Part shown: piece after piece, positions 7,772 to 10,476 of the stretch
How positions within the stretch are numbered: the first letter of the stretch is position 1
Layout: every line of letters starts with the position of its first letter
NCBI GenBank assembly: GCA_964648855.1
Contig: CAZYLT010000007.1
Span: 1 to 32,000, forward strand
DNA from: an uncultured archaeon
GTDB lineage: Archaea > Asgardarchaeota > Thorarchaeia > Thorarchaeales > Thorarchaeaceae
Reading direction: 5' to 3'
DNA length: 32,000 bases
Notes under the pieces: model-generated
The model's input: the letters and a program-made list of their open reading frames with translations, nothing else
Told to the model about the DNA's origin: nothing
Database searches by the model: none
Program-made: the position numbers and the translations under genes

Positions 7772-8551
7772 CTATTCAATAATCAATATCGCGTCAACAA
7801 AAAGCTCATATTCCTCATCCTCATCAAGATTCAGAATTAGTGCCTTTTCCACTTCTTCTTCTCCGCGGACTTCAAGAAGCCTTGACTCATAAAGCACTTT
7901 AACTGCCGAGTTACGGAGTTCTTGTTTCAATTCATCGGTCGTAACGATTCGTGATTCTGGAGTCAATAGAACCACCCTGTCAGTTACATCTGTCAGCTCA
8001 AGTGCAGCTTCAACTGATTCATCTCCAGTGTGCAATACCAAGGTTCGCTTGTTTTCAAATTGGCTTCTATCCATCCACGACAGGTACACACCTTTGTCCA
8101 GAAATTCATCTTTGCCCACAACACATTCGGGTTCCTCCTCTTTCTGCTTCTCTTCCATTACCACTGCCTCGCCTTTACCCATCTTGTAGTTCTTGATAGC
8201 CTCATGAAGTGCTTCGGTGGCCAGATTTGAGCAGTGCATCTTGATTGGTGGCAGCCCGTCAAGTTCGTCAGCCACATCCGCGCGAGTGAGTTCCAAGGCT
8301 TCGTCTATCGTCATGCCTTTGACCATCTCTGTAGCCATGCTTGTGGTTGCTATGGCTGAACCACAGCCAAATGTTCTGAATCTTGCATCCTTTATCACAT
8401 CGTCCTCAACCTCTAGGAATATCTCCATGATATCCCCACATGTGGGATTTCCCACTTTCCCGCGGACGACATTATCGCCTTCAAGCGTACCAACATTTCT
8501 TGGATTTCTAAAATGGTCGAGAACCTTTTCTGAATATTCTGTTGATTTCAT
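7772..8551 (-). CDS. iscU: IscU/NifU-N Fe-S scaffold fused to a degenerate thioredoxin-reductase-like NADPH domain
   Basis: aa 1-125 carry NPRNVG, NPTCGD, FGCGS and LPPIKMHC (C38, C63, C107). aa 144-259 follow the TrxR central domain. Confidence 0.9.
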   Translation of the reverse strand: MKSTEYSEKVLDHFRNPRNVGTLEGDNVVRGKVGNPTCGDIMEIFLEVEDDVIKDARFRTFGCGSAIATTSMATEMVKGMTIDEALELTRADVADELDGLPPIKMHCSNLATEALHEAIKNYKMGKGEAVVMEEKQKEEEPECVVGKDEFLDKGVYLSWMDRSQFENKRTLVLHTGDESVEAALELTDVTDRVVLLTPESRIVTTDELKQELRNSAVKVLYESRLLEVRGEEEVEKALILNLDEDEEYELFVDAILIIE

Positions 8552-9750
8552 CTACTCATCACCTTCTCTTTCGGAGTGTAAATTGGAGATAGCTCACGTA
8601 GTCGGGATACGACTTTAGGGACCGCATCTATCACCCTATCTATGTCGCTGTCAGTATTGAATCGTCCCACGGTAATCTCAAGAGAGCCGTGCGCCTCTTC
8701 ATGAAGTAATCCTGTAGCAATAAGACAATGCGAGGGTTCAAGGGTCTTAGAAGTGCACGCAGACCCTGTAGAGATAGCAATGTCCAGGTCTTTGAATGAT
8801 AGCAATATCGATTCTCCCTCAATCCCGTCAAACCTGAAGTGAGCGTTGTTTGCCAGTCGTTCCTCAGGATGACCATTAAGATAGCTGTCAGGTACTTCAT
8901 TCAGCACAGTATCGATGATTCGGTCACGATACTTCTTAAATCGCCCTATTTCATCATTCATTTCTTCCTGCATAATCTCGGCTGCTGCGGCCATCCCGAC
9001 GATGGATGGCACATCTTCGCTTCCTGACCTCAGTCCCCTCTCTTGACCTCCTCCAATTATGAGCGGATTTACTCTGTAACCTCTCCGCATGAAGAGAAGA
9101 CCTGCTCCCTTAGGACCATAGATGTCATTTGAAGACATAGACATCAGGTCGATATTATCTGTTTCAACATTAATCGGAACTAGTCCTTCGGCTGCAACTG
9201 CGTCCGTATGTAGTGCAGCACCATGGTCATGAACAATCTCTCCAATCTCTCGTATCTTTTGAATAGTCCCAATCTCATTGTTTGCATATTGTATGGAAAC
9301 CAGAATCGTGTCACCCCGGAGTCTGCTCTCAAGTTTTCCAAGTTTTACCTGCCCGTATTGGTCGACAGGAACTCTGGAAACCATGAAACCTTCTCTTTCA
9401 AGATATTTTGCTATATTTCTGATAGAAATATGTTCCACTTCTGAGATGACTATGTGTTTTCCCTTTCTTTTGTTCCTTAAGGCATAACCAACGATGCCTA
9501 AATTGATAGATTCCGTCGCGCCGGAGGTATAGACTATTTCATCCATCTTGGCTCCGATGAACTCAGCCACTTTCTTTCTGCTCTGTTCTAATGCTTCAGT
9601 TGCTACATCACCGACATGGTGTAGAGAAGATGGGTTACCAAATCTCTCAGAGAAGTATGGACTCATCTGCTCCATTACTCGCTCATCAACGGGCTTAGCA
9701 GATTGGTAGTCGAGGTATATCTGTTCGTCGAATGTGCTACTCATCCTCAT
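8548..9750 (-). CDS. iscS: group I cysteine desulfurase homologue (IscS/NifS), Lys-to-Asp variant
   Basis: YLDY, GNPSS, TSGATES, NNEIG, GGGQERGLRSG and TGSACTS (C332). The PLP motif reads SSNDIYGPKG rather than SxHKxxGPKG. Confidence 0.92.
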   Translation of the reverse strand: MRMSSTFDEQIYLDYQSAKPVDERVMEQMSPYFSERFGNPSSLHHVGDVATEALEQSRKKVAEFIGAKMDEIVYTSGATESINLGIVGYALRNKRKGKHIVISEVEHISIRNIAKYLEREGFMVSRVPVDQYGQVKLGKLESRLRGDTILVSIQYANNEIGTIQKIREIGEIVHDHGAALHTDAVAAEGLVPINVETDNIDLMSMSSNDIYGPKGAGLLFMRRGYRVNPLIIGGGQERGLRSGSEDVPSIVGMAAAAEIMQEEMNDEIGRFKKYRDRIIDTVLNEVPDSYLNGHPEERLANNAHFRFDGIEGESILLSFKDLDIAISTGSACTSKTLEPSHCLIATGLLHEEAHGSLEITVGRFNTDSDIDRVIDAVPKVVSRLRELSPIYTPKEKVMSR

Positions 9751-9992
9751 TCGCTCTTTTTCTTTATTAGAAAGACTTGAACTCCATCTCCAAGTTTATC
9801 ATAACTAAGGAGCTCATGCCCCGTCCGCTTGCAGAATCTCTCAAGATCCGATTTTGCTGCGGGGTCGTCTGAAAGAACTTGCAGAACCTGACCTGGTTCC
9901 AACTCATCAATTGCTTTCCGCGTTTGAAATAAGGGTTGTGGACAGTACAGACCGATACAATCCAGCTCGCTATCTACTTCTTCTGAGTTCAT
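9747..9992 (-). CDS. tusA: TusA/SirA-family sulfur carrier
   Basis: LDCIGLYCPQP (CPxP) and SDDP...D motifs. Start placed at MNSEEVD; 4-bp overlap with iscS. Confidence 0.92.
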   Translation of the reverse strand: MNSEEVDSELDCIGLYCPQPLFQTRKAIDELEPGQVLQVLSDDPAAKSDLERFCKRTGHELLSYDKLGDGVQVFLIKKKSE

Positions 9993-10071
9993 CTCCAAAT
10001 ATACACCTTTCTCAATACACAATAGTTAATTATTGACTTATAATTCTATTCGTAGGAAAAAATCTGCTCCT

Positions 10072-10476
10072 CTATTGGTCACGATCCTGCACAAGCTCAT
10101 CTTGCATTATTCTACATCTGTCCAGCCATACTCTTTGGTATGTGATGTGGTCAACGACTCTATCTTGGAGATCCGGTATTGATTCAATTCCGTTAGACTT
10201 GCACCACTCGACGCAGATTCTATATGCCTTCCAGTCGAGATTCATGGTTTCCACTTCGACTGGAACTCTTTCAAATCCATTGAGATGCCACGCAAGCCCC
10301 CGAGTATGCCCATCTGTTGATACCAGTTCCCCATCCAACCTCTTGATGGGTATTGGTTCCAATTCATGTTCTCTACCTTCTTCAAAGAAATTCAGAACAA
10401 GGTCGAGTTTCTTTTTTGATATATAGAGCTGACTCGGCTGAATCTTATGGAGTTCTAGTGGTGAGGGAATGTCCAT
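10072..10476 (-). CDS. ParB/sulfiredoxin-like N-terminal domain protein
   Basis: IQPSQ...PIPI...DGHTR pattern of the ParB/Srx fold. Confidence 0.65.
   Translation of the reverse strand: MDIPSPLELHKIQPSQLYISKKKLDLVLNFFEEGREHELEPIPIKRLDGELVSTDGHTRGLAWHLNGFERVPVEVETMNLDWKAYRICVEWCKSNGIESIPDLQDRVVDHITYQRVWLDRCRIMQDELVQDRDQ

Follow-up and report, generated by a model that had tools for sequence, protein, structure and literature searches.

The window analysed here is a 32,000-nucleotide stretch of a contig from an uncultured archaeon of the Thorarchaeaceae, and on its reverse strand lies a tight tusA–iscS–iscU operon (Table 1), in which tusA and iscS overlap by 4 bp, as do iscS and iscU. The last gene encodes an IscU that continues, beyond a linker, into a C-terminal domain resembling the NADPH domain of thioredoxin reductase (TrxR), referred to below as the relic domain. 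The segment 7772–8125 spans exactly Cys143 to Glu259 plus the stop codon, with 8114–8134 reading EPECVVG, and a scan for a promoter or terminator 3' of the fusion gene found none. By a genome-wide look, the fusion is the sole IscU of a genome that is 94.6% complete, and the order tusA–iscS–iscU::relic recurs in most of the 30 Asgard loci inspected.

Table 1. Features of the tusA–iscS–iscU operon, in window coordinates.
Feature	Position	Strand	Remark
iscU::relic fusion gene	7772..8551	(-)	Single 259-aa ORF, P0001
IscU domain, aa 1–125	8177..8551	(-)	NifU_N and TIGR03419 matches
Acidic disordered linker, aa 126–142	8126..8176	(-)	pLDDT <50 for residues 132–143
Cys143, lone Cys on a flexible arm, directly before the relic domain	8123..8125	(-)	
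Relic NADPH-type Rossmann domain, aa 144–259	7775..8122	(-)	Profile, fold, alignment; conserved LDEDExYELFVD loop
IscS, Archaeoglobus fulgidus type	8548..9750	(-)	Best PDB match 4eb5_A, 2e-140
TusA-family sulfur carrier, first gene of the operon	9747..10022	(-)	Pfam TusA, 9e-25

Residues 5–125 of the fusion are a canonical IscU. They are matched by NifU_N (PF01592) at 1.9e-47 (161 bits against a cut-off of 22) and by the IscU profile TIGR03419 above its curated cut-off (192.1 against 187.9 bits), and the cluster ligands Cys38, Asp40, Cys63, His106 and Cys107 are intact here and invariant in both alignments (A1 and A2). Foldseek matched this part of the model to the IscU chains 7cnv, 4eb5_C and 3lvl_A, the second of which shares 59% identity with it.

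For the remainder of the protein, a first-pass annotation had proposed a TrxR-like NADPH domain following an acidic linker with a lone Cys143, and had suggested a fold comparison as a check; profile, structure and fold searches all bear this out. TIGR01292 (thioredoxin-disulfide reductase) matches residues 144–259 at 8e-14 over profile positions 117–232 of 300, which are its NADPH domain, scoring 51 bits against a cut-off of 343 and leaving both halves of the FAD domain unmatched, and Pfam Pyr_redox gives 1.3e-4. The best solved match is PDB 2zbw (7e-11, chain residues 130–247, 30% identity), behind which rank some 20 further TrxR, AhpF and FNR chains. The AlphaFold2 model of the fusion (mean pLDDT 84, pTM 0.52) gives the relic domain as alpha/beta with an intact Rossmann fold at a pLDDT of about 90, and Foldseek matched TrxR-type chains to it (2zbw_B, 3f8d and 7jyp, over about 123 columns at an rmsd of 2–3 Å). 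The resemblance to TrxR is thus far beyond chance, and the domain is a homologue of the NADPH domain of low-Mr TrxR.

When aligned with the genome's own genuine TrxR (SYCATCDG, VGGGNTA, IHRRD), the relic domain reads YLSWMD at the CxxC, LHTGDES at the GxGxxA and LTPES at the HRR, so that the earlier observation that the GGG motif, the HRR site and the FAD domain are all missing holds. The CxxC, which had been listed among the losses, is indeed absent here, although it was not lost in the fusion, since the nearest full-length relatives never show it. The pattern is general: in a set of 69 archaeal and bacterial short domains, no sequence has a Gly at the first position of GxGxxA, where D, H, E, Y or F stands instead, the HRR position is T followed by variable, never basic, residues, and the folded domain is without Cys in 138 of 140 short fusions. 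A search of this genome for a separately encoded FAD half found only full-length TrxR-type genes. The protein therefore has the NADPH fold of low-Mr TrxR and lacks both FAD halves, the CxxC, the GxGxxA and the HRR; with the TrxR-type ferredoxin-NADP+ reductases it has a CxxC-less NADPH domain in common, but the FAD domain and the nucleotide motifs that would place it among them are absent. The GenBank name of the orthologue in Candidatus Lokiarchaeum ossiferum B35, 'Ferredoxin--NADP reductase', is misleading for the same reason.

We regard the 116-residue C-terminus as a probable pseudo-enzyme in which a redox or NADPH-binding function is unlikely, because the old nucleotide site is not among its constrained features. 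It might instead bind a nucleotide or another small ligand at the degenerate Rossmann site and tune cluster assembly as a metabolic or redox sensor. The intact, confidently modelled fold would suit such a role, as would two residues kept in the old pyrophosphate loop, G176 (64/69) and S179 (61/69). However, the first Gly has become Asp or Glu in 49 of the 69 domains, none of them retains the HRR 2'-phosphate site, lineages differ freely at positions 174, 175, 177 and 178, and the conserved residues lie on the beta-sheet and loop face that is predicted to touch IscS, away from the old nucleotide site. A sensor of this kind seems to us quite improbable.

The loss of every catalytic motif could also be read as the mark of a functionless remnant, or the fusion as a product of assembly or gene calling. 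Against decay, dN/dS in the Thor family is 0.033 for the relic domain and 0.027 for IscU (both rough, as is the 0.26 of the linker, residues 126–143 including Cys143, with dS near saturation), and 23 positions of the relic domain are at least 90% conserved across the 69 archaeal and bacterial sequences; purifying selection on the relic domain is as strong as that on IscU. Nor is the fusion an assembly artefact, because an intact ORF is found in roughly 200 of the 400 Asgard genomes, with closed chromosomes among them. Its standing as the only IscU of the genome examined here counts against both readings as well. Remnant and artefact alike are scarcely credible.

A search for the fusion across Asgard genomes had been proposed in the first-pass annotation, and the short fusion is present in about half of the 400 sampled. 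Counting by hand the full-length matches (rows with E of at most about 1e-99), it occurs in about 68 of 85 genomes for its own, Thor-type family, in 113 of 135 for family f22, in 9 of 14 for f21, in 4 of 4 for f23, in 2 of 2 for f19 and in 2 of 3 for f17. Carriers include the cultured Promethearchaeum syntrophicum MK-D1 and Candidatus Lokiarchaeum ossiferum B35, and also a Hermodarchaeota MAG. The short fusion is not specific to Asgards: it adjoins IscS in many bacterial MAGs, among them MAGs of Actinomycetota (Coriobacteriia, Gaiellales and Thermoleophilia, on contigs of up to 1.37 Mb), Desulfobacterota, Aerophobetes, Aminicenantes and WOR-3, and it is found in one Bathyarchaeota MAG. Binning errors could account for some single-MAG assignments but not for the large Actinomycetota clade. 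In the tree, bacterial sequences are interspersed with Asgard ones, which indicates lateral transfer. The acidity of the relic domain, also pointed out in the earlier annotation, differs between lineages: it is extreme in the Thor lineage (net charge −16 to −21) and modest in most of the Loki-type sequences compared (−5 to −14), and extreme acidity was dropped as a defining property.

An origin for the domain is suggested by longer proteins. An exhaustive search with the relic domain retrieved P0152, a 443-aa protein that joins IscU to an entire TrxR-like flavoprotein, and more than 80 clusters of such long fusions of about 444 aa (some 443–449 aa) were found, mostly in Ca. Methanoperedens; Asgard examples are one from a named Jordarchaeaceae and a 448-aa gene in a closed genome (G117). 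The long fusions consist of NifU_N and a full Pyr_redox_2 match (1–291 of 291). Like the short form, they carry an IscS-linked IscU at the N-terminus, and the relic has its nearest relative in their NADPH domain; unlike the short form, they keep the whole FAD domain (GGGPAG) and, in Methanoperedens, also GGGNSA and HRK, and as judged by these motifs they are probably real flavoreductases. The CxxC is absent from the long fusions and from their nearest stand-alone relatives, TrxR-like proteins of the ferredoxin-NADP-reductase type; in this branch the redox disulfide was already missing when the reduction of the fusion took place.

With 78–89 bits, the long fusions score higher against a profile of the short domain than almost all stand-alone TrxR-like proteins. 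In maximum-likelihood trees built on the NADPH domain, the short forms fall into one clade (100/100, on a stem of 0.93–0.95), and two such trees group short and long fusions to the exclusion of stand-alone proteins (96/94 and 98/94); as far as sequence phylogeny goes, this shows that the short form arose once, within the group of long fusions. The Asgard long fusions, in which the HRR is already YKEK and which have the acidic loop LGEDEDFELVVD in common with the short forms, look intermediate by these residues. A sister relationship between them and the short form, obtained in the first tree (83/73), became a polytomy after bacterial sequences were added. An exhaustive search among representative proteins for stand-alone relic domains gave proteins of 56–200 aa and no evidence for a free-standing family, those inspected resembling fragments, calls from the internal Met of MHCSNL, frameshifted pieces or chimeras. 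In the simplest history, an IscU–flavoreductase fusion would have lost its split FAD domain once.

A cysteine next to the relic domain has persisted through this history. Cys143 is invariant in the 25 Thor-type sequences. Among 140 short fusions with a complete domain, exactly one linker Cys is present in 131, the Cys lies in a short C-terminal tail instead in 6, and both segments are without one in 3; the same pattern holds in 41 of 43 further loci, mostly from bacteria and non-Thor Asgards. The linker around it is otherwise unrelated between lineages (GxGCG in Actinomycetota, EC-VVG in Thor), and the Promethearchaeum type has its Cys in the tail. Low-Mr TrxR contains its NADPH domain as an insertion, the N- and C-terminal strands of which depart from a common point, and because of this a Cys on either flank would occupy the same place. 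We infer that the linker or tail Cys is functional; its persistence invites the speculation that Cys143 might serve as a cluster ligand or a sulfur relay.

The IscS encoded upstream is by its motifs of the PLP-less A. fulgidus type, with the lysine replaced by aspartate and the Cys loop retained: at the site where desulfurases read S-x-H-K it has SSND, with Asp209 (codon 9124–9126) in place of the PLP lysine, and Cys332, in the retained loop, is invariant in the IscS alignments. SSND was found in every readable IscS beside short or long fusions, bacteria included, but HK is kept in several Asgard IscS beside plain IscU genes. A PLP lysine had been expected in the IscS beside the long fusions, and this was wrong, the Methanoperedens locus L049 and the Asgard loci L048 and L051 all having SSND.

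A repurposed docking or regulatory role, put forward in the first-pass annotation together with a complex prediction with IscS as a check, is the best reading of the domain, and IscS is its predicted partner. The complex was modelled from two IscS chains (aa 11–390), IscU (aa 6–126) and, as the scored partner, the relic domain (aa 142–259), with a gap of 15 residues between the IscU and relic chains. Three runs gave ipSAE values of 0.63, 0.64 and 0.65, against 0.00 for the best of three controls, and agreed in at least 92% of contacts, with a partner pLDDT of at least 85. Of 80 solved complexes 58 score as high, and so do 2 of 110 mismatched pairs; this calibration is rough here, because our own alignments and four chains were used. 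We know of no solved complex of an IscS with a fusion of this kind, which makes it unlikely that the predictor reproduced an existing structure. Confident contacts fall on positions 169, 191–192, 194, 218, 220, 231–232, 235–236, 243, 248 and 250–252 of the relic domain, on positions 104, 128, 131, 139, 142–143, 344–347, 349–350 and 352 of IscS, and on N35 of IscU. The monomer model, which has no fixed orientation between domains, as its pTM reflects, fits a tethered module and is silent on the partner.

Conservation coincides with this interface on both sides. Of the 15 contact positions in the domain, 9 belong to the set of 23 that reach 90% conservation or more in the 69 sequences (Fisher p 2.5e-4). 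On the IscS side, 8 of 380 positions are module-specific, that is, invariant in 20 partners of fusions and different in at least 4 of 5 partners of plain IscU; four of these (104, 139, 344 and 352) are among the 13 interface positions (p 5e-5), and a fifth, 127, adjoins an interface residue. The tests treat positions and sequences as independent and the fusion-partnered IscS are kin, so that the statistics assume more independence than there is. E104, P128, K139, R143, I344, L349, H350 and E352 are also kept in 28 or 29 of the 29 IscS from bacteria and Bathyarchaeota, none of which was part of the alignment used for the prediction. The module-specific residues could be conserved for another reason, and conservation may itself sway the predictor; the prediction supports binding of the relic domain to IscS but does not show it.

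It is also conceivable that the relic domain docks a different partner, such as thioredoxin, ferredoxin, flavodoxin, the TusA of the operon or apo-clients; the first-pass annotation had named a reductant, TusA or client proteins. Thioredoxin docks on the NADPH domain of genuine low-Mr TrxR, as is textbook knowledge, the operon includes tusA in most Asgard loci, a flavodoxin gene follows the long fusion in Methanoperedens, and the relic domain is acidic. Ferredoxins and flavodoxins, however, are acidic too, and none of these partners was seen travelling with the fusion in bacterial loci, where only IscS and IscU were sought; IscS, the sole partner put to prediction, passed with its controls at zero, and its contact residues are conserved specifically in the fusion module. 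Another partner is accordingly rather unlikely in our judgement. A further proposal would make the domain a self-association module pairing two IscU, for instance so that two [2Fe-2S] clusters can be coupled reductively to give one [4Fe-4S] cluster. The flexible tether would allow such pairing, but TrxR is known from textbooks to dimerise through its FAD domains and not its NADPH domains, and IscS is already predicted to bind the conserved surface. Dimerisation of IscU is part of cluster maturation in other systems (PMC8617193), and even so we find self-association very improbable.

We favour, with a confidence only a little above even, the reading that the domain is a relic of an IscU–flavoreductase fusion, now serving as a non-redox module that docks on IscS and has spread together with a PLP-less IscS. 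The ancestor would have joined IscU to an entire TrxR-like flavoreductase of the ferredoxin-NADP-reductase type, a form that Ca. Methanoperedens and some Asgards still carry at full length. One lineage would then have lost both halves of the split FAD domain along with the nucleotide motifs, and the remainder would have been held by strong selection and carried by gene transfer with the PLP-less (Lys to Asp) IscS. According to the predicted complex, the invariant surface formed by R169, R192, K218, E235, D243, Y248 and F251 would dock on a module-specific patch of IscS (E104, K139, I344, L349, H350 and E352) that lies beside the Cys332 loop and the IscU assembly site. More speculatively, such docking might keep the scaffold on IscS and bring Cys143 near the nascent cluster, where it might act as an extra ligand or a sulfur hand-off arm. 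A bolder extension, which we think doubtful, is that PLP-less IscS and the fusion together constitute a desulfurase-independent Fe-S machine, with the relic in the berth of frataxin or ferredoxin and the tethered Cys as the fourth cluster ligand or as the hand-off arm that frees the cluster from the IscS Cys, the long fusions being the ancestral version with its electron donor built in.

The fusion is a widely distributed, strongly selected variant of the ISC scaffold that is absent from the literature searched. ISC-type Fe-S assembly is textbook biochemistry, yet a description of an IscU with this domain was found in no paper, PMC6857552, PMC7585200, PMC12872458 and PMC11293456 among them, within a search of incomplete coverage, in line with the earlier impression that the architecture was not a described one. 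Databases call the fusion plainly 'NifU' or 'IscU', or wrongly 'ferredoxin--NADP reductase'. It is open to experiment, being carried by both named cultured Asgard archaea, and it occurs widely in anaerobic Actinomycetota as well as other bacteria. It offers a clear case in which an enzyme domain would have become a structural pseudo-enzyme with its intact ancestor alive for comparison, together with a predicted docking interface and a candidate mobile cysteine, and with it the odd PLP-less arrangement known from A. fulgidus is extended to a large module capable of lateral movement. The long fusions suggest, in addition, a possible electron route to the scaffold in archaea that have no bacterial ferredoxin partner. 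Asgard IscS and IscU are relevant, too, to current debates over the origin of eukaryotic NFS1 and ISCU (PMC12872458).

Several known systems resemble this one in part. The reductase in 2ZBW, a TrxR-type ferredoxin-NADP+ reductase of Thermus thermophilus, is like the relic in having no CxxC, but it is a complete FAD- and NADPH-binding enzyme, whereas the relic has neither the cofactor sites nor the FAD domain. NifU likewise adds domains to an IscU-type N-terminus, and its profile TIGR02000 matches residues 5–135 of the fusion, although at 151 bits it falls far short of its cut-off of 273; its added ferredoxin-like and Nfu domains, however, are cluster-binding and unrelated to the relic. Residue 344 of the IscS studied here, which we take to be the equivalent of R340 of E. 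coli IscS from a hand alignment of the Cys-loop region, belongs to the predicted interface. The R340E change in E. coli IscS weakens binding of CyaY, IscX and ThiI (PMC2854127), and the relic domain is predicted to occupy roughly the berth of these proteins; frataxin (PF01491) was sought in the genome and gave no match. CyaY, IscX and ferredoxin are acidic and dock on E. coli IscS beside IscU near the active-site loop, as is predicted for the relic, but the likeness is one of position only, there being no kinship of sequence or fold, and the relic is tethered in cis. A further parallel is the (IscS–IscU)2 complex of A. fulgidus (4EB5, 4EB7, 4HVK, and 4R5F for the D199K variant), whose IscS has the same SSNDIYGPKG and Cys loop as the IscS of the window but departs from it at the predicted docking patch, with A, G, F and K, in a hand-read alignment, in place of E104, D130, K139 and L349. 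Its IscU, of 153 residues in the PDB entry, has no TrxR-like domain, unlike the fusion, and its IscS is without desulfurase activity and gives a Cys ligand to the [2Fe-2S] cluster on IscU (PMC7585200).

In the full-length IscU-flavoreductase fusions (long fusions) of Ca. Methanoperedens, the order of the neighboring genes suggests that the scaffold has its own built-in electron-supply chain, since both loci, L014 and L049, have a flavodoxin gene directly after the fusion (see the table) and a DsrE-like gene on the upstream side of iscS. Among the other neighboring genes, the 134-aa ORF of the window gave zero matches to the Pfam and NCBIfam profiles, and the two ~790-aa genes of Asgard family f22 carry a weak TusA-like segment (E ~1e-7).

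Coordinates of the neighboring genes, the IscS substitution and the other IscU architectures
Feature	Locus	Positions	Strand	Context
Flavodoxin gene	L014	1925-2356		Ca. Methanoperedens; immediately 3' of long fusion
Flavodoxin gene	L049	6592-7023		Ca. Methanoperedens; immediately 3' of long fusion
134-aa ORF	window	10072-10476	-	directly upstream of tusA
~790-aa gene	L023	4003-6390	+	Asgard family f22; directly downstream of iscU fusion
~790-aa gene	L030	24-2399	-	Asgard family f22; directly downstream of iscU fusion
IscS Asp209 codon	window	9124-9126	-	inside iscS 8548-9750; SSND replaces S-x-H-K
IscU-FeS_assembly_P fusion	L038	1483-2133	+	Asgard genome G085, family f13
Plain IscU, 148 aa	L031	1495-1938	-	Asgard genome G308, family f30; adjoins SSND-type IscS

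The cultured Asgard Candidatus Lokiarchaeum ossiferum B35 (CP104013.1; loci L089 and L016) has a fusion orthologue, UYP44078.1, which is labelled 'Ferredoxin--NADP reductase' and has NifU_N as its only Pfam match; contrary to that label, it is an IscU scaffold carrying the cofactor-less relic of a thioredoxin-reductase-like domain. The metagenome protein P0128 (176 aa, a single representative) combines the relic domain with an unrelated N-terminal segment, which by impression we take to resemble a CorA-type N-terminus; contig chimerism or a gene-calling error is the probable cause. The iscS and/or iscU-fusion frames of three Actinomycetes MAGs (L117, L124, and L128) are broken into at least two ORFs, reflecting either frameshifts or sequencing errors.

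Other IscU architectures also occur in Asgards. The L038 protein, distinct from the relic-domain fusion, joins IscU to a DUF59/MIP18-type FeS_assembly_P domain (PF01883, 3.5e-7), and its adjoining IscS apparently has Thr at the PLP-lysine position. The plain IscU of L031 ends in a flexible His-rich tail (last part ...HHDHACEP) with a terminal cysteine, which resembles a mobile Cys present in the absence of the relic domain.

In the window IscS, Asp209 occupies the position of the PLP-binding lysine, and SSND was found without exception among the readable IscS genes adjoining short or long fusions, those of bacteria included. The identical substitution is present at the PLP-lysine position of A. 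fulgidus IscS (4eb5).
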